From: an uncultured delta proteobacterium
Lineage (GTDB): Bacteria > Desulfobacterota > Binatia > Binatales > Binataceae
Assembly (NCBI GenBank): GCA_963711565.1
Contig: CAVQEQ010000004.1
Span: 212,961-276,960, forward strand
DNA length: 64,000 nucleotides
Direction: 5' to 3'
Position numbers and translations under genes: made by a program. The notes below the pieces were generated by a model that saw only the letters and a list, made by a program, of their open reading frames with translations, did not search any database and was not told the DNA's origin. How positions within the stretch are numbered: position 1 is the first letter of the stretch; each line of letters starts with the position of its first letter. Of the stretch, positions 2,937 to 26,199 are shown in pieces.

Positions 2937-4457
2937 ATGGCACTGATGATGCGCGCTTCGCGAAAGATCTCTCGACAGATTGTCGCCGCCGCATCGGCGC
3001 TTTTCTTCAGCGCGCTCACTCCGGTCGCGCACGCGCAGATGACGCCGGCCTGTTCCGCCTCCGAATCGAGCGGCGAATACTGCGTTGGCGCGTCGCGGCG
3101 CGAAATCACTCCGACCTCGCCGGTCTATCTCGGCGGTTACGGCTTCGGTCCCGTCCGGCGCTCGACCGGGGTAATGAGCCCGATCTACGCGCGCGCAATC
3201 GCCATCTCGCGCGGTGACAAGACCGTGGTCTTCTGTGCGATCGATACGCAAGGCCATTTCCTCGCCTACCAGGGGGACGACGCGCCGTATGGCGCCGCGG
3301 ACATTCGCCGCCGCGTGTCGAAAGACACCGGCATTCCCGCAAGCGCGATCATCATCGCCAGCACTCATGATCATTCGGGGCCCGACGACATCGGAGTATG
3401 GGGCGGTCTGCCGCCGGCGTACTTGAACTTCGTCGCCGACCAGGCCGTCGCCGCAATCGAATCCAGTGTGCGTGGCGAACGGTCCGCATCGCTTTACTCA
3501 GGCGAGATTAATACCGCGCCGTCCCATCTCCTGCGGAGCCTGCTGCCGGGCTATCCGATCGACACGAAACTGCGCGTGATATTCGCGAGAGGTTCCGACG
3601 GCGCGCCGTTCGCGACGCTGATTAATTTCAGCGCCCACGTCACCGCGCTCGGCAAGGACAATGCGCAGATTTCGCCGGATTGGCCCGGAGCGGCTCTGGA
3701 AGCCATCGAGAAAGCTAACCCAGGCTCGACGGCGCTCGTGATGGTCGCCTCGGTCGGACGCACCTTGCCCGACCTCAAGGCGATCGGCGCCCGCGGTCCA
3801 TCGGCCGCCCAAACCTACGGCGCGACCGTCGCGAGGCTCGCACTCGTTGCCGAGGCCCTCGCGGTGAAAGTTGACGGCCCGATCGCGACCGCCGAAACCA
3901 TCCTCGAAGAGCCGGCCGAAAATTCCGTGCTCGTGAGCCTGATGACCTCCGGCAAAGTCGGCGTGGACCGCGTGATGCGCTCGAATCGCGAACCTTACAT
4001 GGCCGCCGACAGAAGCAAGGTCCGCACGGTCGTGGGCGCGATACGAATCGGCAATCTCTTCTTCGCCGCCGTGCCGGGCGAGTCCTTTCCCGAAACGCAA
4101 ATGGCGCTCGAGGCCCGCGTCGCCGCGGACGGACACTACCTCTTCTCCCTCGCCGACGATCAGCTCGGCTACGACCCGCCGCCCTACGAATTGGGCATGG
4201 TCGAGTTCGCCAGCCCGCTCGACGAGGGACTGTTCATCATCAATTCTCGTTTCGGTACCGACGTTACGCGCACGCTGCTGGTACAGGCGCGCGCACTCGG
4301 CTTTACAGTTTCCGATACAGGCTATACAGGTGACGAGGCCCGCGAAGCCCGCGGCTTGGTTGATTCAATTGACGGGACGATCGGAATGGTCGAGGAACCT
4401 ATCGCCCGCCGGCTCATCCCGCTGATGCTCTGGCTGGGATACGATCGCTTTCACTGA
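2937..4457 (+). CDS. Secreted neutral/alkaline ceramidase-like hydrolase (family assignment tentative)
   Basis: A 538-aa ORF. The internal Met at 2937 starts a signal peptide (MALMMRASRKISRQIVAAASALFFSALTPVAHAQ). IIIASTHDHSGP resembles the ceramidase SHTHSGP zinc-site motif, and GGYGFGP resembles the N-terminal substrate-loop region. Confidence 0.45.
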   Translation: MALMMRASRKISRQIVAAASALFFSALTPVAHAQMTPACSASESSGEYCVGASRREITPTSPVYLGGYGFGPVRRSTGVMSPIYARAIAISRGDKTVVFCAIDTQGHFLAYQGDDAPYGAADIRRRVSKDTGIPASAIIIASTHDHSGPDDIGVWGGLPPAYLNFVADQAVAAIESSVRGERSASLYSGEINTAPSHLLRSLLPGYPIDTKLRVIFARGSDGAPFATLINFSAHVTALGKDNAQISPDWPGAALEAIEKANPGSTALVMVASVGRTLPDLKAIGARGPSAAQTYGATVARLALVAEALAVKVDGPIATAETILEEPAENSVLVSLMTSGKVGVDRVMRSNREPYMAADRSKVRTVVGAIRIGNLFFAAVPGESFPETQMALEARVAADGHYLFSLADDQLGYDPPPYELGMVEFASPLDEGLFIINSRFGTDVTRTLLVQARALGFTVSDTGYTGDEAREARGLVDSIDGTIGMVEEPIARRLIPLMLWLGYDRFH

Positions 4458-5897: not shown

Positions 5898-5957
5898 CCC
5901 CAGACCGCCGCCTTAGCCGGAACGCACGCAATCGCATATAACTGACGCGATGACACC

Positions 5958-7463
5958 TTGCGCGCCGCGCTCCCCGATGGAGCACCGACTGTGAAAATCG
6001 GTACTCGCCTGACCCTCGTCCTGATGCTGTGCGTGATGCCGGTGATCGCCGCCTACACTTATTGGAGCGTCGCGCAGTCCAACGTCTATCTGAACGAGTT
6101 GAAGCAATCGGCGCGCGCCGTCAGCTCCGGCACGGCCCCTTCGGTTGACGAAGAAGTCATCGCCAATCAGTTCGACAAAATCGGTGACGCGTTCCGCAAG
6201 ATGGACGCGCAAGGAACGCGCAGCGCGATCCTCCGTAAGGACGGCACGCTATGGTACTCGCTGCCGGACTTCCCCAATGAACTCGTCGACGCGGCCCGGG
6301 TGCAACTCGCGCATTACCAGCCCGTTGAGTTCGGCCCGACCAGCGGCCCGATGAACTGGTTCTGTGAATTGGTCCCGCTGAAAGGAAACGGCGGCGACGT
6401 AATCGGCTATCTGCTCGAAGTCCAGGATTGGACCAAGGTGGCGCGTGATAGCCGCACGCAATCGATCGCGTCGATCGTCGTGGCGCTCTGTCTGCTCGCT
6501 ATCGTCGCGGCGGTCATCCCCGCGATGGTCTATCGGTACGTCTCGCGGCCGCTCGCCGATCTGTCGGCCAAGGTCACGAAATTTTCTTCGAGCGATTCCG
6601 ATCGGCCCGCGGGCAGCGAAGTGGAACTGCTCGGCGAAGAATTCGGCAAGCTCGATCAGCAGCTCAACAAGGCGCGCATCGATCTCGAGGATCGCCATCG
6701 GCGCGAATTGGAACTCGAACGCGAGCTGCAGCGCGCGGACCGGCTCGCCACCATCGGCGCGCTGGCCGCCGGACTCGCGCACGAAATCGGCACCCCGATG
6801 GGCGTGATCCGCGTGCGCGCCGAGTCTCTCCAACAGGACGAGACGATCGCGCCCGACTCGCGCGTCAAGCTCGGCATCATCGTCCGCCAGATCGATCGCA
6901 TCACGCGCATCGTCCGGATGCTGCTCGACTATGCGCGCAAGAGCGAATCGCACAAGGCCATCTGCGACTTGCGCACGATCGCCGAGCGCGCACTGACTCT
7001 GCTCGAGCCGGAAGCCGCGCATCGCAACGTCAGGACAATCGCTCGACTGGGAGACAATCCGCTGATGGTAAATTGCGACGCCGATCAGCTCGAACAGGTC
7101 TTCGTCAACATGATCATGAACGCCTTCGACGCGATGAATCGCAACGGCGGAACCCTGCGCGTCACCGCAAATTCTGAAAAAGGCAACGGCGGCTCGCGCG
7201 TGACAATCGCGTTCGAGGACACCGGCGTCGGCGTCGCCCCCGAGCACGAGAAAAGCCTCTTCGCCCCCTTCTTCACCACCAAGGAGCCGGGCAAGGGCAC
7301 CGGGATGGGCCTCGCCGTGAGCCAGTCTATAGTACGCGAGCACGACGGCGAGATAACCTTCAGCTCGGGCCCGACGGGTTCGCGCTTTGTCGTCGCGATT
7401 CCGATGGCGTCCGCCGAGATAGTCGAACATGAGCATGGACCCCGTGAGCAGCGGCACGCATAG
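5958..7463 (+). CDS. Sensor histidine kinase (NtrB/AtoS-like; TM, HAMP-like linker, HisKA and HATPase_c)
   Basis: The H-box is LATIGALAAGLAHEIGTPMGVI. The N, G1 and G2 boxes are FVNMIMNAFDAM...GTGMGLAVSQSIV. Two N-terminal TM segments are present. Confidence 0.8.
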   Translation: MRAALPDGAPTVKIGTRLTLVLMLCVMPVIAAYTYWSVAQSNVYLNELKQSARAVSSGTAPSVDEEVIANQFDKIGDAFRKMDAQGTRSAILRKDGTLWYSLPDFPNELVDAARVQLAHYQPVEFGPTSGPMNWFCELVPLKGNGGDVIGYLLEVQDWTKVARDSRTQSIASIVVALCLLAIVAAVIPAMVYRYVSRPLADLSAKVTKFSSSDSDRPAGSEVELLGEEFGKLDQQLNKARIDLEDRHRRELELERELQRADRLATIGALAAGLAHEIGTPMGVIRVRAESLQQDETIAPDSRVKLGIIVRQIDRITRIVRMLLDYARKSESHKAICDLRTIAERALTLLEPEAAHRNVRTIARLGDNPLMVNCDADQLEQVFVNMIMNAFDAMNRNGGTLRVTANSEKGNGGSRVTIAFEDTGVGVAPEHEKSLFAPFFTTKEPGKGTGMGLAVSQSIVREHDGEITFSSGPTGSRFVVAIPMASAEIVEHEHGPREQRHA

Positions 7464-8814
7464 CGATCAGGCAATCGTGCTGGTCGTCGACGACGACCAC
7501 GACATGGTCGCCGCGCTCAGCGACATCCTGCGCGAAGCCGGCTACCGTCCGCTGAGCGCGCATTCGGGCAATGAAGCGCTCGCGATCGTCGCGCGCGAAT
7601 CTCCCGACGTGCTGATCTCCGATCTCCGGATGGCCGGGATGAGCGGGCACGGACTGCAAGCCGAGCTGAAGCGAATCGCGCCCGATCTGCCCGTGATCAT
7701 CATCACCGCCTTCGGTTCGATTCAGACGGCGGTCGAGTCGATGAAGCTCGGCGCCTTCGATTACATCACCAAGCCCTTCAGCAACAGCGAGTTGCTGCTG
7801 CTCGTCGCGCGCGCGCTGGAAAATCGCGCCCTCCGAAGTGAAGTGAAGCGCCTGCGCATCGAGCTGGCGCGCAATCACGGCCTCGAAAATATTATCGCGT
7901 CGAGTCCGAAGATGACTGCGATGCTGAGCAAGCTCGCGCAGGTCGCCGACAGCAACGTCAGCGTGCTGATCACCGGCGAGAGCGGCACCGGCAAGGACCT
8001 GCTGGCGCGCGCGCTTCACTTCCAGAGCGCGCGCCACAGCGGCCCGTTCGTGCCCGTCAACTGCGCGGCGATTCCCGAGAGCCTCATCGAGAGCGAGCTG
8101 TTCGGACACGCGCGCGGCGCCTTCACCGACGCCAAGCAGAACAAGGTCGGCCTCTTCGTCGCCGCCAGCCACGGCACTCTCTTCCTCGACGAAATCGGCG
8201 AGATGCTCCCGACAGTCCAGGCCAAGCTGCTCCGAGTCATCGAGGACAAAAAAGTCCGCCCGCTCGGCGCGACCGGCGAGACGACCGTCGACGTCCGCGT
8301 CATCGCCGCCACCAACGCCGATTTGGAGAAAGCGGTCGCCGACGGCCGCTTCCGCTCCGATCTATTTTATCGCATCGCAACCGTCACGATGGCGGTGCCG
8401 CCGCTGCGCGACCGTCCCGAAGACATTCCGCTGCTGATCAAGCACTTCCTGATGCGCGCCGGCGCCGAGGCCGGCAAACCCCCGCCGAATCTCGACGCCG
8501 AAACGACGGATCTTCTCACGCACTATCGATGGCCCGGCAACATCCGCGAGCTGCAAAACGCGATTCAGCAGGCCGTCATCCTCTGCTCCGGCCCGCAGAT
8601 CACCCGCGCCGACCTGCCGAGCAGGATCACCGGCGACCACCACGCCCCGAATCACCTGGAAGAACTCGCGTCACGCCGAATGCCCCTGGAAGAAGTCGAA
8701 CGCCAATACGCCCGCGCCGTTCTGGCGTCGGTCAACAACCACCGCGGCGAAGCCGCCGCAATCCTGGGCGTCGACCGCAAAACCCTAACCCGCAAACTAG
8801 AAGACCCCGACTGA
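7429..8814 (+). CDS. Sigma-54-dependent response regulator (NtrC family: REC, AAA+ sigma54-activator and Fis-type HTH)
   Basis: REC domain: VLVVDDDHDMV...DLRMAGMSG. Walker A: GESGTGKDLLARALH. GAFTDA is present and ELFGHARGAF is the GAFTGA-like region. The C-terminal HTH is AAAILGVDRKTLTRKL. It overlaps the kinase gene by 35 nt. Confidence 0.85.
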   Translation: MSMDPVSSGTHSDQAIVLVVDDDHDMVAALSDILREAGYRPLSAHSGNEALAIVARESPDVLISDLRMAGMSGHGLQAELKRIAPDLPVIIITAFGSIQTAVESMKLGAFDYITKPFSNSELLLLVARALENRALRSEVKRLRIELARNHGLENIIASSPKMTAMLSKLAQVADSNVSVLITGESGTGKDLLARALHFQSARHSGPFVPVNCAAIPESLIESELFGHARGAFTDAKQNKVGLFVAASHGTLFLDEIGEMLPTVQAKLLRVIEDKKVRPLGATGETTVDVRVIAATNADLEKAVADGRFRSDLFYRIATVTMAVPPLRDRPEDIPLLIKHFLMRAGAEAGKPPPNLDAETTDLLTHYRWPGNIRELQNAIQQAVILCSGPQITRADLPSRITGDHHAPNHLEELASRRMPLEEVERQYARAVLASVNNHRGEAAAILGVDRKTLTRKLEDPD

Positions 8815-8883
8815 TTCGCGCTAGATTGGCGCCGCGCCCTCCTGAAGGTGCAGAAGACGCGAGGATGAAACCATTACTGGATC

Positions 8884-10263
8884 CTAAGCGTGTACAAAAT
8901 GCTCGATGACTTTCTTCGCGAACTGATCTACTAAGGGAGTAATTGTTACCGACGCTATCAACGACAAGGCAGCAACAGACGGGGCCCTGAATTTTTCAGC
9001 AGCTTTGATCTGCCGTCTTAGTTCCTCTCTCTGATGGCGGTAGAACTCGGCCCAATCTTTGGCTGTAGTGTTGGCCTTGTCAGGATTTACACTCGTCTCG
9101 AGCTCCCGCATGATATTTGAGGTCTGTCCACTAAACTCATTGAACCATTCTACATGCTGAAAGCGCGGGTCGTAGTCGCGGGTTCCCCTAAAAGCCTCTA
9201 CAGAACCTTCGGTAAACGGAGCTTGCTCGGGAAGCTGCGAAGCATTCTCTACAAGGGCGGTAGCGTCTAAATTCGGCTCGGCGACTGTTTTGCCAGAATC
9301 CTCCGTTTGGCTCATGGTGATGCCCCACAGAAGCATCTTGTCGCTATCCAGAAAATTCTTCCACTTCTCACCGAACCTAGCTATCAAATGTCCTAACTCT
9401 GCTGCATGACTTTTGCCGGTTGGTGCTTCCAGCGTCTTAACCAAATCGGTAAGCCAGCCTTCCTCTTTCTTTAGTAGATCCAACCGCTTGGTTCTGCCGC
9501 GTAGCCAGCCAATCAGATAGGGTATCAAAATGAATGAGGCCAGATAGGAAATGAGGATGATCGGTAATATCAACGGAAATTGAAGTGGAATGTTGGTATT
9601 TAGAAAGCTAGCACTTTCTCTATTCGGGTTAGGAAGAGTCCAGTAGAACAGTGCCAGGTATAAGGCAAAAGGAACCAACCCACCGAATTGCGCTACAAGA
9701 AAACGACTTCGGGTTCCTTCGTCCAAGTTCTCAGACGAAAGAGTTCCGACGATAACAGGCAAAGAAAGCGGCAAGCCCGCGACAGTGGACAAGAGCAGAG
9801 TGAGCTGGATAGTCCTAACCTCAAGCTCAGGCGATGAGATAGGATGTCTGAAGTATAGGATCGCGGCCACGATTGGATAGCCCAAGAAAGCCACGATCGA
9901 AAATAGCAAACCCAAAACCATGGTAATCGGATGCTTTAGTCCGAATTCGTTACCAGCCCACAGCGAGCGCAGTCCCCACTCGGTCTCACTCGAACCAAGA
10001 AATCCCCAGAGAATACCCGTGACGATCACACCCAGCTGAGCGCCGGCGAAAACTAGAGCCATTAGAGCCACACTGCCGAAGCCGCTCAGTAGGTAAATGA
10101 ACGAAAACATCCCGGCTGTCGAAAGCAAGATGGTTAACTCAGTAAAGGCGAAGGCATTGCTGGTCCGCAGGCCGTGTGTCGTGGCCTTCGATGTGAGCCG
10201 CGCGCTTGCGATCGCAAAAACGAAATACGCGAAGCAGAAGACGAGGAATCTAAGTAGATGCAT
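8884..10263 (-). CDS. Orphan integral membrane protein with about 8 TM segments and a ~190-aa soluble C-terminal domain; no family recognised
   Basis: A 459-aa ORF. Its GC content is visibly lower than the flanking DNA. Hydrophobic helices span residues 1-270, followed by a charged C-terminal domain. There is no motif I can assign. Confidence 0.5.
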   Translation of the reverse strand: MHLLRFLVFCFAYFVFAIASARLTSKATTHGLRTSNAFAFTELTILLSTAGMFSFIYLLSGFGSVALMALVFAGAQLGVIVTGILWGFLGSSETEWGLRSLWAGNEFGLKHPITMVLGLLFSIVAFLGYPIVAAILYFRHPISSPELEVRTIQLTLLLSTVAGLPLSLPVIVGTLSSENLDEGTRSRFLVAQFGGLVPFALYLALFYWTLPNPNRESASFLNTNIPLQFPLILPIILISYLASFILIPYLIGWLRGRTKRLDLLKKEEGWLTDLVKTLEAPTGKSHAAELGHLIARFGEKWKNFLDSDKMLLWGITMSQTEDSGKTVAEPNLDATALVENASQLPEQAPFTEGSVEAFRGTRDYDPRFQHVEWFNEFSGQTSNIMRELETSVNPDKANTTAKDWAEFYRHQREELRRQIKAAEKFRAPSVAALSLIASVTITPLVDQFAKKVIEHFVHA

Positions 10264-10441
10264 CTTTTTTTCCGAACAGGCCCCCTTGTTCGCAAAACTG
10301 TCGAGGCGGTAGATTCTACGTTTTATTGTTCAAGTTTGTAAACACCGGTCGCTGCTTCCGTTAACAACCCGATTGCATCTTCGCAACGAATTCTGTCGAC
10401 AGCAAAATCCTGTCCGCAAACTCGAAGACGCCGACACCTAT

Positions 10442-11692
10442 TCAATTATTGGAATAATTCTTACCAATATATAAAGTGAAAGTGCGCATTTTCGAATTTA
10501 GCTCTTTGCCGAGATCGCCGCGTCGCGTTACCTCGATTCGCTCGAGGCCCAGCCACGACGCCATTGTGACCAGCTCGCGCATCAGCGGTTCCGCCACCGC
10601 GCGCGGCCGCACGCCGGGCTCGCTATGCGCGCCCTGCACGAGCAGCGTCCGCGTTGCACGATCGGATTTCAGATCGACGCGCGCGACCAGCCGGTCCCCG
10701 AGCAGGAACGGCAGCACATAGTATCCGTACTTGCGCTTCGCCAACGGAGTGTAGATCTCGATTCGATAATGGAAGCCGAAAATTCTCTCCGTGCGCGCGC
10801 GCTCCCACACCAGCGAGTCGAACGGAGAGAGCAGGGCGCGCGCCTCCAGCCTGCGCGGCGACTTCGCCTCGCGATGGACGTACGCCGGCTCCCGCCATCC
10901 TTCGACCCTAACCGGAGTCAACTCTCCCGTCTCGACGAGTTCCCTGATGCGCTGCCTGCCGGGAGTCAGGCGGATGCGAAAATAATCGCAAAGATCTTTC
11001 TCCGTGCCGACGCCAAGCGCGCGCGCCGCGGTTCGCATCAGCTCGCGCTGGGCGTCTTCGCGCGCGGGAGTCGGCATCGCGAGCACTCGCGCCGGGATAA
11101 CTCGCTCCGGCAGATCGTACAGCCGCTCGAAGCCGCGACGTCCCGCCGCCGCGACTCGACCCGCGGCGAACAGCGCCTCGAGCGCGTGCTTGCCGTCACT
11201 CCATCCCCACCATCCGCCCTTGCTCGCACCCGCGCCGGTAATCTCGCGAGCCGCGAGCGGGCCGCGCTCGCGGATCTCATCGAGCGCCGCCTGCATGAAG
11301 CCGGGGCGGCTGCGATTGAGACGCCCAAAAATGTCCTCGTTCTTGTCAGCCGCCTGCGCCATCCGCCAGCGCAGCAAGGGATGCATTTCGAACGGCATCA
11401 ACGACGCCATGTGCCCCCAATATTCGAACAGCTCGCGCTTGGCCGGCGCGCCGAGCCACGACGAGTCGAGCAGTTCCGGTGCGTAGTTGCCGAGGCGCGA
11501 AAAAAGCGGCATGTAATGCGATCGCACCAGCACGTTGACCGAATCGATTTGCAACAGCCCGATCTGCGCGATGACGCGTCGCAAATGCCGGCGGTCGAGA
11601 CGCCCGGACGGCCGCGGCTCCGCAAACCCCTGCGCCGCAAGCGCAATCCGTCGCGCTTCATCCGCCGAGATTTTCTCGATTCTCCCGCTCAT
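10442..11692 (-). CDS. Winged-helix DNA glycosylase of the YcaQ/AlkZ family (DUF1006; interstrand-crosslink repair)
   Basis: RKYGYYVLPFLLGDRLVARVDLKSDR and WLGLERIEV resemble the C-terminal core of the YcaQ/AlkZ family. The likely start is MSGRIEK at 11692. Confidence 0.6.
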   Translation of the reverse strand: MSGRIEKISADEARRIALAAQGFAEPRPSGRLDRRHLRRVIAQIGLLQIDSVNVLVRSHYMPLFSRLGNYAPELLDSSWLGAPAKRELFEYWGHMASLMPFEMHPLLRWRMAQAADKNEDIFGRLNRSRPGFMQAALDEIRERGPLAAREITGAGASKGGWWGWSDGKHALEALFAAGRVAAAGRRGFERLYDLPERVIPARVLAMPTPAREDAQRELMRTAARALGVGTEKDLCDYFRIRLTPGRQRIRELVETGELTPVRVEGWREPAYVHREAKSPRRLEARALLSPFDSLVWERARTERIFGFHYRIEIYTPLAKRKYGYYVLPFLLGDRLVARVDLKSDRATRTLLVQGAHSEPGVRPRAVAEPLMRELVTMASWLGLERIEVTRRGDLGKELNSKMRTFTLYIGKNYSNN

Positions 11693-11923
11693 AGCGCGGC
11701 CCGTTTCCACGTTCTGTCGCTGACGCAAGCAAAAAGATTAGTCCTAAATGTCCATGGTATCCTTGAAATCCGACGACTTCCCCCGCGAAACTTCAGCCAA
11801 CAAATTCGCCGCAGAGCGTCGTCCCTGAGTGCAAATCAGCGGCGCTTCCAAAAATGTTTCAGTGGGTGGCTACGATCTGTTATGTTTGAGGCCTTCCAAA
11901 CGTAGCGTCACATTGAATGGGAG

Positions 11924-12982
11924 GTGGGTGTCGTGAAGGAATCGGCACGTTTCCAATTTCCAACATCCGGAAGCTTTTTGGGATCGCACTACGCGAGTTT
12001 TTCCCGGGCTGCCGAAATTGCGGCTAGTCTCCAATCGAATATCTCGATAGGCAATTCCATCTTAGCAGCTAAGTATCTTTCTCCCCCCGCGTACTTACGA
12101 AATCTTGATGTCTTCTCGACATTAGGTGCAATGACGGAGTCTTTCGAGGCGACGCGCCGGAGTATTGAGTCCTTTTCCCATGTAGCCGAGATCCCGGCCG
12201 GCCTCCGATCGACTATCTCGATAGGCAATTCCTTTTTAGCAGACAGGTATCTATCGGCCCCTGCATACTTTCAACATCTCGATGTTCTCTCGGCTTTCGA
12301 TGTGGTGACGAAGTCCTTTCATGCGACGCGCCAGATGATCGAGGCCTTTGACAGCTGCAGAAATCTGATGGACGAATTCCGTCAGTACGAAGAAACGATA
12401 GCGACAAATGCCGAAAAGCTGGGATCTCTTGGATGGACGATCCCAATGGACGCCACCATTCCAGATTGTATGCGTCTACTCGAAAGGAGCTCGAATTCCG
12501 AAACAGCGGACACGGCATTTACGGCATTTTATAACGCAGACGAGCGCGCTGCCTATTTGGCATTGAAGGAAAGGCTTCTTGCAGAAACCGAGCTAGCGAT
12601 GTGGCGAGAAGATCTGATCACAGCCCTCGCAAGGTTCGAACACGATGATTACCTCAGCTGCGTAAGCGTACTTCTTCCTAGAGTTGAAGGTTTCTTAGCG
12701 ACCAAAGGCAAGGAACCTAGATTCTACATGAAGGGAGCACGAGAGCGCTTCTTCGCGCAAAAACTGAACACCGCCGATAAGTCGCCGCTAAACGACGCTC
12801 TTTGGTGTTCCGTCAGGGCTTTTGTCGATCGTCTGTACGAGCCTGTAGACTTTACAGATCAGGTTCAGCTCACCAATCGATTGAATAGACATGCTTGTGT
12901 TCATGGACGCGGCAACTACAAACACACGCAAGCAGACTGCTTGCGCCTGTTACAAGCGCTAGACACTTTGTCATCCTTGTGA
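11924..12982 (+). CDS. Orphan protein containing an internal ~58-aa tandem duplication; low GC
   Basis: A 352-aa ORF. Residues ~28-85 and ~86-143 are about 60% identical (EIAASLQSNISIGNSILAAKYLSPPAYLRNLDV versus EIPAGLRSTISIGNSFLADRYLSAPAYFQHLDV). At the nucleotide level the duplication is 11990-12160 versus 12166-12340. No known domain was found. Confidence 0.45.
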   Translation: MGVVKESARFQFPTSGSFLGSHYASFSRAAEIAASLQSNISIGNSILAAKYLSPPAYLRNLDVFSTLGAMTESFEATRRSIESFSHVAEIPAGLRSTISIGNSFLADRYLSAPAYFQHLDVLSAFDVVTKSFHATRQMIEAFDSCRNLMDEFRQYEETIATNAEKLGSLGWTIPMDATIPDCMRLLERSSNSETADTAFTAFYNADERAAYLALKERLLAETELAMWREDLITALARFEHDDYLSCVSVLLPRVEGFLATKGKEPRFYMKGARERFFAQKLNTADKSPLNDALWCSVRAFVDRLYEPVDFTDQVQLTNRLNRHACVHGRGNYKHTQADCLRLLQALDTLSSL

Positions 12983-21514: not shown

Positions 21515-22680
21515 TATGCCTTGCTACAAACGTAAATCGCCGCCGGCTGGCCGAGTACCGATACGCGAATGATCTTGCTCGGCGCGATCTTGCGCGTGCG
21601 CTCGAGCTCGCGCATCAGCCGCCACTCCAACGTCAGCATCACCATCATGCCGCCGCTCCTGAGCACCCGCGCGAACTCTTTGAACCACAGTGGATACAGC
21701 TTTCGATTCTCGCCGTGCGAGCCGTAGCGCAGTCCCCACGGCAAGTTGGTGACGATTTTACTTACACTCGCGTCGCCGAGCGGCAGCGCCCCAGCGTCCC
21801 AGTTTTCGAGCTGGATTGGCTTGTAGCGCGTGCCGACGTTGACGCGCGCCGCCGCGAGCGCCGCATGATCGCGATCGCTGCCCAGCAGCATTGCGTACCG
21901 TCCCAGATGGGCCCGCTCGATCAATATCGTGCCCGCGCCGCAGAACGGATCGAGCGCCACGTCGTCCTCGCGCGGCCCGGACAGCCACGCGAGCGCCGCC
22001 GCACTCGACGCGCGGAGCGACGCCGGGCGATGGGCACTCTTGTACTCGCGATGCCGCATCTTGTCGTCGCTGAGCCGCACGGTAAGAAAAAACTCGGCGT
22101 CGATCATCGTCGCCCACAACTCAACGTCGGCGTCCTCTTCTTCCAGCCGCCAGGTGTGATCGCTGCGCTCGAGAATCCCGCGCTCGACCGCGCGCTGAAA
22201 ATCGACGCGCCGATATTCATGCTCACCGGCCATCCTGGCGATCACGCGGAACTTGAGCCTGCGGCCCGCGCGCGTCCCCGGCGAGACTTTGACGCGCGCC
22301 GCCAGCGCCGCCTCGACCAGCGGCGCCTCGCGCGACGCGCCGCGAATCTTGTCCAGTTCTTTGTTCTCCGGCCCGATAGCGGCGCGGTAGCCGGCCAGTC
22401 CGAACAGATCTTCAGCCGTGCGCAGTACGGCCAGCTTCTCGGCCGCCGGCGCGAAAAAAATCGTCATCCCGGCGCGATCGGGCACCACGCGCCGCGTGAT
22501 CTCTCTCGCGCCGCTGATTCGGCCCGCTATCTCGTCAGCCGCGATTCCCTCGAACCCCGGCTGCGTATGCGCGATGTAGAGATTAGGGCCAAAGCGTAGC
22601 GGATGCGGATGCGCGCGCTCGGGCGACGCCGCCTTGCGATCGCGCCCGGTATTTCGATACGTCTGGCGCGCGCTAATCAA
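21514..22680 (-). CDS. THUMP-domain class I SAM-dependent RNA methyltransferase (RlmL/Trm14-like)
   Basis: DPFCGAGTILIERA is the SAM-binding motif I. NLPWG is motif IV of N6-A/N2-G methyltransferases. The N-terminal region is THUMP-like. Confidence 0.65.
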   Translation of the reverse strand: MISARQTYRNTGRDRKAASPERAHPHPLRFGPNLYIAHTQPGFEGIAADEIAGRISGAREITRRVVPDRAGMTIFFAPAAEKLAVLRTAEDLFGLAGYRAAIGPENKELDKIRGASREAPLVEAALAARVKVSPGTRAGRRLKFRVIARMAGEHEYRRVDFQRAVERGILERSDHTWRLEEEDADVELWATMIDAEFFLTVRLSDDKMRHREYKSAHRPASLRASSAAALAWLSGPREDDVALDPFCGAGTILIERAHLGRYAMLLGSDRDHAALAAARVNVGTRYKPIQLENWDAGALPLGDASVSKIVTNLPWGLRYGSHGENRKLYPLWFKEFARVLRSGGMMVMLTLEWRLMRELERTRKIAPSKIIRVSVLGQPAAIYVCSKA

Positions 22681-22691
22681 TTCTCAACCCG

Positions 22692-23255
22692 CTACTTCGA
22701 GCGTGACAGGTACTCGTGCGTCTCGGTGTTGATCGTGATCATGTCGCCCTCGGCGACGAAATGCGGCACGTTGATTACCATCCCGGTCTCGAGCGTCGCG
22801 GGCTTCAGCGTGTTGTTCACCGCCGCCGTCTTCATCCCCGGGTCGGTCTGCACCACCTTGAGCGCGACCGTCTTGGGCAGAGTCACGTTGAGGGGAGTCG
22901 TCTCGTAGAACTCGACTTCGACTTCGAGGTTCGGCGTCAGGAATCCGACCACGTCCTCGATCAGTTCCTTGGGAATCGTAATCTGCTCGTAGTTCTCGGT
23001 GTTCATGAAATGGAAATCGTCGCCGTCCTGGTAGAGGAACTGCATCTTGCTCTGATTCAGGATGACCCGCTCGACGCGGTCTTCCGAGCGGAACCGGTTC
23101 TCGGTCTGCGAGCCCGTCTTGACGTTGCGCAGCTTGGTCTGCACCATCCCGCGCCAGTTACCGGGGGTGATATGCGTGATCGTCATTATCCGCCACAGGT
23201 CCTTGTTGTATTCGACAATCATACCAGGGCGCAGTTGCGTCGCTTGAATCAGCAT
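22692..23255 (-). CDS. efp: Translation elongation factor P
   Basis: A 187-aa ORF. GMIVEYNKDLWRI... KTGSQTE... has the conserved Lys in the KPG-loop region and the typical EF-P three-domain length. Confidence 0.95.
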   Translation of the reverse strand: MLIQATQLRPGMIVEYNKDLWRIMTITHITPGNWRGMVQTKLRNVKTGSQTENRFRSEDRVERVILNQSKMQFLYQDGDDFHFMNTENYEQITIPKELIEDVVGFLTPNLEVEVEFYETTPLNVTLPKTVALKVVQTDPGMKTAAVNNTLKPATLETGMVINVPHFVAEGDMITINTETHEYLSRSK

Positions 23256-23340
23256 CGTGTGAACACTCTCGATAAAGAACGAAGGTTAAGAAGCGAATAT
23301 TACGCAACCCCGCCGCGCGCGGCAAGTTCGCGCCGGCGCC

Positions 23341-23410
23341 GGGTACTGTCTAAATTTGAGGCTGAGTATCTGAATTTGAAAACGCGAGTGTCTTATTTTG
23401 ATTTGAGGCG
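23341..23410 (-). promoter_or_regulatory. R1: ~68-bp element made of three direct sub-repeats (YTCAAAT-N3-9-GAYACTC), upstream of efp
   Basis: The reverse complement reads cgcCTCAAATcaaaataaGACACTCgcgttTTCAAATtcaGATACTCagcCTCAAATttaGACAGTACCc. It is paralogous to R2 at 23958. Confidence 0.5.
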
Positions 23411-23749
23411 GGGATCGTCGGTCGAAATGCAGAGCGCTTCCGTCGCGTATTCGAATTGGTCAGCGACCAGAAACTCTGAATCCGAGAAGTTATCGGGCGA
23501 GAGGCCCTGACGTTGCTCCGCTAGATGATGCTGTTCATCCATATTCGTCGTCGCTGTATCCAGATTTTTCTTTTTGGCAGCTTCACACGCCTGCGCTGAA
23601 TCGTAAGAATTCCGAATTGTCCACTGATTGAGTGGCGCGTTGTCATTCGGTGGCGCGGTGCTGGCGCCGATCGAACGTGGCGGACCTGGTGGCGGCGCTA
23701 TCAGAACCCAGCCCACAAGCGCGAGCGCGGCAACGTGACAGGGTTTCAT
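23393..23749 (-). CDS. Small secreted hypothetical protein (118 aa)
   Basis: The N-terminal signal-like segment is MKPCHVAALALVGWVLIAPP. A Cys pair is present. Local GC is lower. Confidence 0.35.
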   Translation of the reverse strand: MKPCHVAALALVGWVLIAPPPGPPRSIGASTAPPNDNAPLNQWTIRNSYDSAQACEAAKKKNLDTATTNMDEQHHLAEQRQGLSPDNFSDSEFLVADQFEYATEALCISTDDPRLKSK

Positions 23750-23759
23750 AACCCATGAT

Positions 23760-24023
23760 TTAACCGTAATGCTCTGCGGTGTTCCATAGGCGCATCAGGC
23801 TTTTACGGTCATCATCATGGAATGCTGCACGCAGCTTGTCGAATAGTCCCGGCTCGAAGCGATAAAGCGCTTCCTTCCTGAAGCCGACTGAATCGCGGTC
23901 GCCCTCCCTACGTACCTCAACCGCACGACCCCAATCCGAAATGGAAACGAGCTTGATCGGTTGGTACTGTCTTAATTCGGGTCTGAGTGTCGGAATTTGA
24001 AATCGCGAGTGTCGTAATTTCAA
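23760..24023 (-). CDS. Hypothetical ORF (87 aa); its first ~22 codons, including a TTG start, lie inside repeat R2, so it may be spurious
   Basis: Based on ORF integrity only. Confidence 0.2.
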   Translation of the reverse strand: MKLRHSRFQIPTLRPELRQYQPIKLVSISDWGRAVEVRREGDRDSVGFRKEALYRFEPGLFDKLRAAFHDDDRKSLMRLWNTAEHYG

Positions 24024-24025
24024 GG
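23958..24025 (-). promoter_or_regulatory. R2: second copy of the three-sub-repeat element
   Basis: The reverse complement reads cgcCTTGAAATtacGACACTCgcgatTTCAAATtccGACACTCagacccgaaTTAAGACAGTACCaa. It also contains the palindrome TTGAAAT-N13-ATTTCAA. Confidence 0.5.
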
Positions 24026-24304
24026 CGCAGGGTAAATGCGATTCCTGCTACTGTCTTGCAGCAGAGGGTCGAGCAATGTCGGGTGAATAGTCAGCAATCC
24101 GCAGAGAATGCACACCGCACCTAAGAAATACGTGAATAGAACGACTGCCCTTTTGCCGAACATCTCTTTGAGACAGGCCTGTGAGTACCATAGGTCAAGC
24201 GGCCTCTTGATCGGGGGATCGACCAACCAGCGCCAGCGAAAGAACGCCCCACACCAAAGGAAGACGCCTACAGCGATGAGAAACATATTTTCACCAGACC
24301 ACAA
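24020..24304 (-). CDS. Small membrane protein (94 aa, 2 TM)
   Basis: Hydrophobic helices: FLIAVGVFLWCGAFF and VVLFTYFLGAVCILCGLL. Confidence 0.4.
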   Translation of the reverse strand: MWSGENMFLIAVGVFLWCGAFFRWRWLVDPPIKRPLDLWYSQACLKEMFGKRAVVLFTYFLGAVCILCGLLTIHPTLLDPLLQDSSRNRIYPAP

Positions 24305-24343
24305 GCGCGAGCGCGGTTGCGTGGCGGGGCCTCATCGCGCGCA

Positions 24344-25765
24344 CTAAGGAAGCAGCTTGCTGTACCACGGCCTCGACGGCGGAGTCGTGGCGTATGGCGG
24401 CGGGTATCCATACGGATTCGGCGCGTAGTAGGGCGAGTGCAGATACGCCGGGTCGGTTCCGTACGGCGCTGGGTACATCGGCGGATTGCGATACTCGGTC
24501 ATCCCGCTGCCGCCGCCGACCGTATCCACCGACGCCTCGACGAAATCAGTGCCGTTGCCGTATGCGCGAATCCTCGCGTCGCTGCCCGCCGGCATCGGGA
24601 ACGTCACGTCGAACGCGCTGTAGCCGGTGGGGCTGATCGCGATCGGCTCGGCCAGCCGCCCGTTGACGTAAACCCCCGCATGACGCACGCCGGGCCCCGC
24701 AACCTGCCCGACCACTTCGACGTTGCCTGGCGCCGCCATCGATTCTTCGGCGTCGATAATGTTGATCTGCACGTTCGTCAGCGGTCCGAGCGACGAGTTC
24801 GCGTCGATATGACGGCGCGACGGCGAATCTTCGTCATCCGCGCCTGGAATCTCGGCCGTGTTGTCGCCCCGCGAGGGACCCGCCGACGCGATCGGGCTGT
24901 CCGCCAACGGCCCCGCCTCGCCCGACGACGCGCTCGCGCCCGGCTCGACTTCAATCAGCTCCTCGCTCCCGCGCATCGCGCCGACCCCTTCCGGGTCGGG
25001 CGAGACCAGTGCCTGCGCCTCGCGGCCGTAAACGTCCTCGACGCGAATCGCCTGCGTCAGCGTCGGCTGGTCAATCGAAAAATCGAAATTGAGTCGCTGC
25101 TCGCCGGGCGTACTCGCGACGTCGATATCCTTGCTCTTCGTGTCGCCGTCGAAAATTCCCGCCGACTTGAGATCGGTGCCTTCCAGGTAGCCCTTCACCC
25201 GCACCATTGCGCCCACGAAGACCCGCGATTCGATTTTGACCTTCGGAGCAGCCGGCATCGCTTCTCCGGCCGGCGGCGAGACCGACGAGTGCGACGCGGG
25301 CATCTCGCTGCTCGCTACAGACCCCTTCGCTGCGGGCACCTGCTTTTCGAGCGCCGCAATCTTCTCGCGGATTGAGGTCCACTGCTCAGGATACTGGCCG
25401 CCCGCAATCTTCGCCGCCGCTTCTATCTTGTCGCGATCGCCGAGCACCGCCGCCATCGCATTTGCCGCCGCGGCGCTGTCATTTGCACCCAGCGCGGTGG
25501 ACAGCGTTTGCGCATCGCCCGCAAGGCTGGCGGCAGGAGCCAGGATTGGACCGGAGTTACCGGACGCGTTGATGGCATTGAGCATCGAGAAGGCATGATC
25601 GCTCAACTCGAGCGCCTGCGATTGTGCGTCCTGCGCGCAGGATTGCCGCGGTCCGATTCCCACCGCAAACAGCGCACAGACAAAAATCGTCGCCGCGATC
25701 CGTCCGCCGACGGACCCGATTCGCGCCACGAGCGCGCCGCTTCGATGCGCGACGAAATCGATCAC
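24344..25765 (-). CDS. Hypothetical exported protein with a Pro/Tyr-rich C-terminal tail
   Basis: A 473-aa ORF. The N-terminus is an anchor or signal. The C-terminus is ...PMYPAPYGTDPAYLHSPYYAPNPYGYPPPYATTPP. No family was recognised. Confidence 0.45.
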   Translation of the reverse strand: MIDFVAHRSGALVARIGSVGGRIAATIFVCALFAVGIGPRQSCAQDAQSQALELSDHAFSMLNAINASGNSGPILAPAASLAGDAQTLSTALGANDSAAAANAMAAVLGDRDKIEAAAKIAGGQYPEQWTSIREKIAALEKQVPAAKGSVASSEMPASHSSVSPPAGEAMPAAPKVKIESRVFVGAMVRVKGYLEGTDLKSAGIFDGDTKSKDIDVASTPGEQRLNFDFSIDQPTLTQAIRVEDVYGREAQALVSPDPEGVGAMRGSEELIEVEPGASASSGEAGPLADSPIASAGPSRGDNTAEIPGADDEDSPSRRHIDANSSLGPLTNVQINIIDAEESMAAPGNVEVVGQVAGPGVRHAGVYVNGRLAEPIAISPTGYSAFDVTFPMPAGSDARIRAYGNGTDFVEASVDTVGGGSGMTEYRNPPMYPAPYGTDPAYLHSPYYAPNPYGYPPPYATTPPSRPWYSKLLP

Positions 25766-25783: not shown

Positions 25784-25921
25784 CTACGGCGATTGCCGGT
25801 AGCGTTCAGCCGTTTGCTTTATCTGGCGAGAGAGCTTCAGGAATATCTCTCCCTCGTCGTAGATGAAGAGTGCGAGAGCGCCGCCGGCGCCGACAATCAG
25901 ACCGAGGATAAACGCGCCCAT
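25784..25921 (-). CDS. Unannotated small single-TM protein (45 aa)
   Basis: MGAFILGLIVGAGGALALFIYDEGEIFLKLSRQIKQTAERYRQSP. A GGAGGAG Shine-Dalgarno lies 8 nt upstream of the ATG. It ends 18 nt before the start of the 473-aa gene on the same strand. Confidence 0.4.
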   Translation of the reverse strand: MGAFILGLIVGAGGALALFIYDEGEIFLKLSRQIKQTAERYRQSP

Positions 25922-26045: not shown

Positions 26046-26199
26046 TACTGGCTGAATTCAGTTGATGGGCTTACTGTCGGCGTGAGGTGCGTCGCGCGCC
26101 GCTTGACGACGATCCGCAATGAAAAGTAGTTAATTGAATGACATCGCATCGAAAAATCCCCAGGACTACGGCAAGGAAATTGTGAAAGCAACCACGATC

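Follow-up and report, generated by a model that had tools for sequence, protein, structure and literature searches.

Why is the gene for elongation factor P (efp) in an uncultured member of the Binataceae preceded by a short repeat built of three similar units, and why does the same repeat recur a few hundred base pairs further upstream? We addressed these questions in a window of 64,000 nucleotides (GenBank assembly GCA_963711565.1, contig CAVQEQ010000004.1, positions 212,961 to 276,960), to which all positions below refer. We call the repeat R and its two copies in the window R1, next to efp, and R2. R is a previously undescribed dispersed element of ~59 bp of the uncultured soil genus Candidatus Binatus, and the papers retrieved contained nothing on repeats or regulatory elements of the Binatota. 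Our leading interpretation, held tentatively and at slightly less than an even chance, is that R may be a positioned protein-binding upstream module that has spread together with a cassette-like gene family.

The repeat element and its dispersal

A repeat search recovered R1 and R2 as the direct repeat D1 (23342–23399 and 23963–24020), 58 nt long and 84% identical without gaps, with start positions 621 bp apart. The initial annotation of this DNA had described the pair as ~70% identical; the repeat is real, and its two copies are more alike than stated there. Each copy consists of three AATTMAGACAS units spaced by 20 and then 22 bp, which bears out the three tandem sub-repeats that had been described. 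The 21-nt core GAATTTGAAANCGCGAGTGTC is found in the 64-kb window only in R1 and R2, with none expected from shuffled sequences. With at most two mismatches, AATTMAGACASTM matches 11 times in the window against 2.4 expected, and six of these 11 matches lie inside R1 (23344–56, 23364–76 and 23386–98) and R2 (23965–77, 23985–97 and 24007–19). An nhmmer profile built from 63 metagenomic copies detects both elements, and the consensus of R (~59 bp) reads CAAATTAAGACACTCGCGATTTCAAATTCAGACACTCAGCCCCGAATTAAGACAGTACC. The two copies are laid out as follows.

23342–23402, minus strand: R1, a copy of the ~59-bp element (nhmmer E=5e-17)
23398–23386, minus strand: unit 1 of R1, AAATAAGACACTC, including the TAA stop codon of a 118-aa gene
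23376–23364, minus strand: unit 2 of R1, AATTCAGATACTC
23356–23342, minus strand: unit 3 of R1, AATTTAGACAGTACC
23963–24025, minus strand: R2, the second copy of the element (nhmmer E=6e-17)
24019–24007, 23997–23985 and 23977–23963, minus strand: the three units of R2

The palindrome that had been noticed in R2 does exist (12-nt arms, 83% complementary); the other copies of R do not share it, and RNA folding of R1, R2 and the consensus on both strands gave no significant structure (z from −0.8 to +1.4). A terminator scan of positions 22600–24500 found no terminator-like hairpin, and Rfam returned no match at or above the gathering threshold in the whole window. A solitary unit-like sequence, AATTCAGCCAGTACC, is located at 26046–26058 on the minus strand, in an intergenic region upstream of a conserved membrane open reading frame (ORF) of 45 aa (25784–25921); a nearly identical solitary unit is present in locus L137.

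Metagenomic contigs were scanned with an exact pattern. R was found in 83 of them, in ~60 non-redundant flank contexts, and only 2–3 of the contigs adjoin efp. Because the pattern demanded near-perfect units 2 and 3, this copy number is an undercount. The flanks are unrelated to each other beyond a sharp 3′ border, ...AGACAGTACC (GTACC). Copies picked up independently of the search pattern show stronger conservation in the unit cores than in the spacers between them. The copies from the scan lie on metagenomic contigs, which do not allow copies to be assigned to a single genome; on ~1 Mb of efp-centred Binataceae loci the R profile detects efp-proximal copies only, and R1 and R2 are its only copies in the window. 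Two or three copies of R stand 450–950 nt apart in 15 of the 83 contigs, mostly in direct orientation as in the window. The genes downstream of R include rpsB (nine contigs), ffh, mreB, plsY, efp and genes of a secreted-protein family described below. At the rpsB locus, seven distinct sequences combine a conserved R with a variable spacer and a conserved promoter. R is thus an element with many further copies, conserved in related species, and not an unconserved remnant of a single duplication. Since most of its copies are at other loci, an operator specific to efp is not an adequate description.

The unit is also used in other arrangements, as a palindrome, GTGTCTTAATTCAGACAGTACC, and in L022 as GGTACTGTCC-N9-GGACAGTACC. 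Such inverted or palindromic use is as expected of a protein recognition site. A BLAST search of plasmids and phages with the consensus and a pattern scan of viral contigs gave no matches. The suggestion that the repeats might be iteron-like sites therefore has nothing in its favor: the locus is chromosomal and lies between conserved genes, the copies are dispersed, and these replicons gave no match. We also clustered all ORFs within 4 kb of R in the 83 contigs. The only recurrent neighbors are the secreted-protein family and rpsB; no recombinase, integrase, transposase or regulator recurs.

Distance to promoters and conservation at efp

R stops at a fixed distance from promoters. Of the 60 non-redundant downstream flanks, 22 have a TTG that starts exactly 16 nt past GTACC (offset +19), where 0.92 are expected (binomial test, P~1e-24), and no other offset to the end of R is enriched in TTG. 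Seven more of the 60 flanks, of the rpsB type, have TTT at the same position, and a weak −10-like T–A signal follows one 17-nt spacer after the −35 position. At least 17 of these R-coupled promoters are unrelated in sequence. Their −35 hexamers differ by locus: efp has TTGCCG, rpsB has TTTCCT together with an extended −10, ffh has TTGACA and mreB has TTGCCT. With standard promoter spacing, R occupies about −52 to −110, and its units are centred near −59, −80 and −102.

R1 is a typical promoter-coupled copy. The −35 hexamer of efp begins exactly 16 nt past the end of R1, and the end of R1 is 86 nt from the efp ATG, in agreement with the ~85 nt given by the initial annotation. The efp promoter of the window scores just under the threshold of the promoter scan, which detects its counterpart in L034; in the window it is therefore predicted from conservation. 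R2 differs. The hexamer at its canonical offset is TTCCAT, and on reading the sequence we see no acceptable −10 after it. R2 does stand upstream of small ORFs, as had been noted; no recognisable promoter follows it, and it probably drives none. A sigma-54 promoter was also considered for efp and rejected, as the GG-to-GC spacing is 9 nt instead of 10 and no conserved GG lies upstream of the TTG elsewhere.

At the genes of the secreted-protein family, the R-coupled promoter reads TTGTCG-N17-CTAACT, with the ATG 7–9 nt past the −10. This short distance suggests that their mRNAs are leaderless or nearly so. A shared form, ctgtccgccaTTTGTCGg-N16-tgCTAACT, is seen in L138, L143, L179, L102 and others.

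For efp, we compared the loci of 80 representative species of the Binataceae. The contigs L001–L016 come from the same species as the window, are at least 98.4% identical to it across the region and are uninformative. The order of p473, a gene for a 473-aa protein, followed by efp is widespread among the 80 species, with an intergenic gap of ~80 to ~1,800 bp. The core promoter of efp, TTGCCG-N17-TAGAAT, and its 5′ untranslated region (UTR) are common to ~30 species, with or without R. A full R occupies the same position at efp in nine core Binatus species and in the window, and partial copies are found in two more. Neither the other species nor any other genus has R there; L036, L038, L041 and L045 are among the loci that lack it, as are the more distant genera. 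In the R-less L027 and L031, the p473 stop codon is only 15 nt from the −35; in other R-less species the gap is taken up by other DNA. Alignment A1 shows good conservation across R, random sequence for the next ~9 nt and an almost invariant promoter and 5′ UTR; upstream of R, no alignment is possible. Selection has thus retained R at efp while its surroundings were turned over.

Deletion scars are found at the efp slot in L025, L032 and L022. In L022 (5886–5914), the palindrome mentioned above replaces R ~15 nt upstream of the efp −35. It is built from the last 10 nt of R, and may represent either the scar of a deletion or an operator arranged differently. In L019 (~5900–5960), the R position of other species is occupied by a 31-nt palindrome, GGTAGTGGGTCA-TTCAAAC-TGACCCACTACC, flanked by an 11-nt direct repeat, GCCGGCGATTC; it resembles a small insertion of the miniature inverted-repeat transposable element (MITE) or repetitive extragenic palindromic (REP) type.

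Gene cassettes and the layout of the window

In ~40% of the non-redundant copies of R, unit 1 and the stop codon of an ORF with the C-terminus ...C-x3-(D/N)DPRLK-x-(K/N)* overlap, always in one register, and 45 of the 83 contigs have a member of this secreted-protein family no more than 4 kb from R. Their genes begin with a 5′ module of ~58 nt, ATGAAGCCCCGCCACGCnGCCGCGCTCGCGCTTGTGGGCTGGTAyCTGATG, carried by lipoprotein and non-lipoprotein genes alike. Its border at the ATG is abrupt, and its conservation at the DNA level includes synonymous positions: in 59 non-redundant genes, the third positions of codons 4–13 (codon 6 excepted) are 76–93% conserved. The interiors of these cassettes are hypervariable or unrelated, and comprise lipoproteins, two-gene cassettes and, in the window, a membrane ORF resembling Imm17. 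A profile search of the whole library at E≤1e-3 puts the family at 4,251 clusters at 50% identity. No Pfam domain scores above threshold in it. For the 118-aa member in the window, an AlphaFold2 model has a predicted local distance difference test (pLDDT) score of 78.6 and the five models disagree; Foldseek found nothing in the PDB with E<1 for the model. Distant family members have no R, and one has a two-unit variant. R is therefore likely to be a younger addition to an older family.

Cassettes fill or leave empty the same chromosomal slots. Between rho and rpsB, the slot may be empty, may hold a family gene without R, a Y1 transposase gene with a family gene, or two family genes with R. In L121, L135 and L143, 3′ fragments of family genes are joined directly to the end of R. 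The borders of R are thus sharp, its copies stand in tandem arrays, the slots vary in content, and deletion scars and gene fragments abutting R are seen. Together with the conservation of the whole block, spacers included, and its fusion to gene ends in a single register, this shows that R spread by descent along with cassette-like genes and did not originate separately at each promoter. The transposase gene between rho and rpsB (L188/L189, 1418–1864) is of the IS200/IS605 or REP-associated tyrosine transposase (RAYT) type, and is flanked by GC-rich REP-like palindromes. Some copies of R are preceded by three to six tandem 10-nt repeats (GATCCCGCTT / TGGTCCGGCT) between the family stop codon and unit 1. 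These arrays are seen in L099, L110, L119, L127, L137, L153, L163 and L177, and are absent from the copies in the window.

The order in the window, read in the direction of transcription, is p473, a truncated 5′ module, the Imm17-like ORF, R2, an 87-aa ORF, the 118-aa gene, R1, the efp promoter and efp.

24344–25765, minus strand: p473, 473-aa protein with a Pro/Tyr-rich C-terminus, the conserved upstream neighbor of efp
24291–24335, minus strand: truncated family 5′ module, MRPRHATALALVVW and then a stop codon, where the upstream cassette begins
24020–24286, minus strand: Imm17-like membrane ORF (88 aa from ATG; 94 aa from TTG at 24304)
23760–24023, minus strand: 87-aa ORF, its first ~20 codons being R2 in frame; GC content at third codon positions (GC3) 0.53
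23393–23749, minus strand: 118-aa secreted-family gene, MKPxHxAALALVGW...C-x3-DDPRLKSK*
23749–23692, minus strand: conserved 5′ module of the 118-aa gene, its first ~58 nt
23297–23325, minus strand: predicted efp promoter, −35 TTGCCG (23325–23320), 17-nt spacer, −10 TAATAT (23302–23297)
22692–23255, minus strand: efp, elongation factor P, 187 aa (Pfam EFP_N/EFP/Elong-fact-P_C)

On its left, the variable slot is bordered by the p473 gene. The initial annotation does not mention another repeat pair, D2 (23708–23749 and 24294–24335, 81% identical), which corresponds to the 5′ ends of the small ORFs, so that the slot contains a tandem cassette duplication of ~600 bp; the pair spacings of D1 and D2 are 621 and 586 bp. 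The most fitting view of R2 is that it ends, on the 3′ side, the upstream cassette of this duplication, which has been partly replaced. The TGA stop codon of the Imm17-like ORF lies at the 5′ edge of R2, and this ORF sits between the remnant of a family 5′ module and R2, as if the interior of the cassette had been replaced. Imm17 is an immunity protein of polymorphic toxins; the match is weak (Pfam Imm17, E=1.7e-4, 21.9 bits) and below the cut-off of 25. The 87-aa ORF starts inside R2 and the 118-aa gene follows it, as the initial annotation had it. We found no homologues of the 87-aa ORF beyond the ~20 residues encoded by R, and two longer tblastn matches (L130 and L163) proved spurious once aligned. 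As drawn, it is probably not a gene.

The low GC content that had been noticed here is confirmed, at 0.50–0.58 over 23.2–24.3 kb against 0.62–0.73 in the flanks, and the cassette ORFs have GC3 values of 0.53–0.64, against 0.79–0.87 for the host genes. Copies of R in general lie within low-GC islands, with the GC content downstream slightly above that upstream. Two more low-GC islands (GC 0.47–0.53) are present in the window, at ~8700–10400 and ~11600–12800, and contain no ORF with host-like GC3. They flank a gene for an AlkZ-like DNA glycosylase (10442–11728, minus strand).

Possible roles of R and comparison with known systems

The arrangement of R suggests a cis-acting module of ~59 bp with three tandem putative sites for a sequence-specific DNA-binding protein. 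In favor of such a module are the two-turn phasing of the units, the better conservation of unit cores than of spacers, the palindromic use of the unit elsewhere, the conservation between species, the exact distance to −35 hexamers of unrelated genes, and the lack of RNA structure, Rfam matches and terminator-like hairpins. Because the units repeat every ~two helical turns, the putative sites would share one face of the double helix. Roughly every second copy of R ends 16 bp upstream of a sigma-70-type −35, which would place the putative sites near −59, −80 and −102. This geometry would suit a class-I-type upstream activating region, or one otherwise coupled to RNA polymerase (RNAP), and R1 would hold the activating-region position at the efp promoter. 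According to this interpretation, the module was not built at efp but would have travelled with the fast-evolving secreted-protein cassettes, forming their 3′ end. Protein binding by R, its effect on transcription and the direction of this effect are what we infer from sequence arrangement. The initial annotation had proposed a platform for a regulator, and its core holds to the extent that phased direct repeats stand just upstream of promoters, at a fixed 16 nt from −35-like hexamers. The classes of regulator named there fit less well. OmpR/PhoB sites recur every 10–11 bp, against 20–22 bp for the units of R, and the LytTR consensus is absent from both strands of the R consensus, R1 and R2. 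Both copies in the window are better described as 3′ ends of the preceding gene cassettes. The consensus for IHF is absent from R as well.

Several observations weigh against a positioned protein-binding module. Roughly one copy in two lacks a −35-like hexamer at the canonical offset; R2, L112 and L098, where a start codon follows R after 4 nt, are examples. At rpsB, family genes without R also end 12–15 nt from the −35, so part of the spacing could stem from where cassettes insert or are tolerated. About half of the Binatus species have no R at efp and yet share the same efp promoter; as its hexamers are identical with and without R, R would be dispensable for efp expression. The spacers between the units are also fairly conserved, and the 5′ side of R is fused to the family stop codon in one register at many loci, which argues for spread by descent or mobility instead of operators that evolved independently. 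Finally, a candidate regulator was found neither near the copies of R nor in the window, where a Pfam scan of 20 ORFs of 95–428 aa gave no response regulator, receiver, LytTR, Trans_reg_C or helix-turn-helix (HTH) regulator domain; the response regulators expected to be encoded nearby are thus missing from these ORFs.

Some of these observations are also what a mobile cassette system would produce. R could be the boundary or recombination module of such a system, with its three repeats bound by a recombinase or transposase; the DNA from the 58-nt 5′ module to R would then be exchanged site-specifically or by gene conversion, and would dock to promoters at a fixed distance. The sharp borders at the ATG (third positions 85–93% conserved in 59 genes) and at GTACC agree with this, and so do the unrelated interiors between intact ends and the two or three copies of R in 15 of the 83 contigs. 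The p473–efp and rho–rpsB slots are empty, singly filled or multiply filled depending on the species, and scars of deletion, 3′ gene fragments at the end of R, the atypical GC3 of the cassettes and the R-less cassette ends 12–15 nt from the rpsB −35 point the same way. But no recombinase, integrase or transposase recurs near R. Terminal inverted repeats, target-site duplications at the borders inspected, attC-like symmetry and a GTTRRRY core are all missing, and plasmid, phage and viral matches are lacking. Furthermore, we found no clean pair of empty and filled sites showing precise insertion, and the neighbor-joining (NJ) tree of efp and its downstream gene is too star-like for gains to be counted against losses. 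We consider this explanation rather unlikely. A more elaborate version combines it with regulation: leaderless cassettes reaching from the 58-nt module to R would be inserted or exchanged ~16 bp upstream of resident −35 elements (efp, rpsB, ffh and mreB), and R would double as the recombination end and as a built-in activating region by which the displaced promoter stays functional. Such a new cassette system seems unlikely to us. Two specific kinds of mobile element were considered as well. One was a Tn7/Mu-like transposon end (terminal TGT followed by three ~22-bp sites); in L166, inverted copies of R flank two divergent cassettes. As no target-site duplication is present there, GGTAC is conserved outside the TGT and each R has its own gene, we retain this idea solely as part of the cassette explanation. 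A MITE or an element derived from an insertion sequence (IS) was dismissed, as there are no inverted arms within or between R1 and R2 and no duplications at the borders inspected by eye.

R might instead act in RNA, as an unstructured, C-over-G-rich Rho-utilisation or 3′-UTR element that stops read-through into the downstream promoter. It overlaps the upstream stop codon in a fixed register, its C/G ratio is 2.1 in a genome of ~63% GC, it stands at operon ends before promoters, no intrinsic terminator is seen at 22600–24500 in the window, and the sense strand of its consensus is almost unstructured (minimum free energy −0.4 kcal/mol, z=+1.4), which is unusual. An RNA element would not predict the exact 16-nt distance to the −35, the phasing of the repeats at 20–22 bp or the inverted and palindromic units, and at ~59 nt R is short and contains few YC dimers; we judge this role distinctly unlikely. 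Quite improbable, in our estimate, is a role without a dedicated binding protein, in which phased AT tracts would form bent, UP-like DNA or nucleate a nucleoid or silencing protein and modulate promoters non-specifically. The tracts AAATTAA, CAAATTC and GAATTAA do recur ~21 bp apart, or two turns, although the genome is GC-rich, and they are found within low-GC islands, next to the RNAP footprint on its upstream side. However, the GC-containing parts AGACAC and CAGTACC match or exceed the AT tracts in conservation, for which bending by itself gives no reason; moreover, UP elements act at −40 to −60, and the AT tracts of R are at −62 and beyond. The simplest explanation, that R1 and R2 are neutral leftovers of a local tandem duplication, is scarcely credible. 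A duplication did happen, as the similar spacings of D1 and D2 show, but as a full explanation it is refuted by the dispersal of R to dozens of unrelated loci, by its fixed distance to promoters and by its conservation between species against randomised flanks.

If R is a positioned platform for a regulator, as we tentatively prefer, the Binatota, an uncultured phylum, would gain their first candidate regulon and cis-code. Translation genes such as efp, rpsB-tsf and ffh would be connected with a very large family of small secreted proteins that is uncharacterised, and R would clearly exemplify the reuse of a ready-made upstream module before unrelated genes. If the cassette explanation is true instead, it would mean a gene-cassette mechanism distinct from integrons that targets promoter-proximal DNA. 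Under either reading, R provides a precise 59-bp bait and search key.

Known regulatory systems share parts of this architecture. LytTR regulators of the AgrA, ComE and PlnC/D class control the promoters of peptide-pheromone and bacteriocin operons, and their consensus is [TA][AC][CA]GTTN[AG][TG]. Like their promoters, R has direct repeats ~21–22 bp from centre to centre at a fixed position upstream of the −35, and it precedes several operons for small secreted and membrane "immunity-like" proteins. Unlike them, R has three units where LytTR promoters usually have two, and AATTMAGACAS is off the consensus. No LytTR regulator or kinase recurs within 4 kb of the 83 R copies or was found among the 20 window ORFs. 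A further difference is that R is joined to the preceding gene at its 3′ end and also stands before housekeeping genes. In contrast to the LytTR operon systems, the organism is a diderm, as it has a Mla system. Class I activators provide a second comparison, with CRP bound at −61.5 and the Fis sites of rrn P1. The putative sites of R similarly lie on one helical face, at about −60 to −100 of sigma-70 promoters, and, as in Fis-type upstream regions, genes of the translation apparatus are included (efp, rpsB-tsf and ffh). In R, however, the whole 59-bp block is conserved between loci together with its spacers, and orthologous promoters of sister species have no R and an unchanged core promoter.

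Among recombining gene families, Neisseria pilE/pilS, with its 3′ Sma/Cla repeat, and the Borrelia erp/UHB paralogues have conserved ends and variable middles. The R cassettes resemble them in the conserved leader, the hypervariable mature part, the short 3′ repeat and the partial "silent" 3′ fragments, but the copies of R are dispersed next to housekeeping promoters, in a free-living soil organism. Integron cassettes with attC sites ("59-base elements") are also small, co-oriented, atypical ORFs in arrays, each followed by a ~60-bp repeat; the repeats are similar within a taxon, and the cassette content varies by strain at a fixed chromosomal slot. The repeats of R, in contrast, are direct, with no R''/L''-L'/R' symmetry, no GTTRRRY core or inverse core and no stable single-strand fold. 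No integrase was seen, and the R cassettes share a conserved 5′ module, which integron cassettes do not. The published idea closest to R is that of putative mobile promoters, or promoter reuse, in prokaryotes: near-identical upstream regions, core promoter included, before non-homologous genes of one genome (PMC3575422). R likewise places similar upstream sequence before non-homologous genes, here on metagenomic contigs. Unlike the mobile promoters (PMC3575422), the R block stops 16 nt before the −35, and the −35 and −10 hexamers differ by locus. Each resident gene has its own core hexamers, and R is therefore a reused upstream module rather than a whole promoter.

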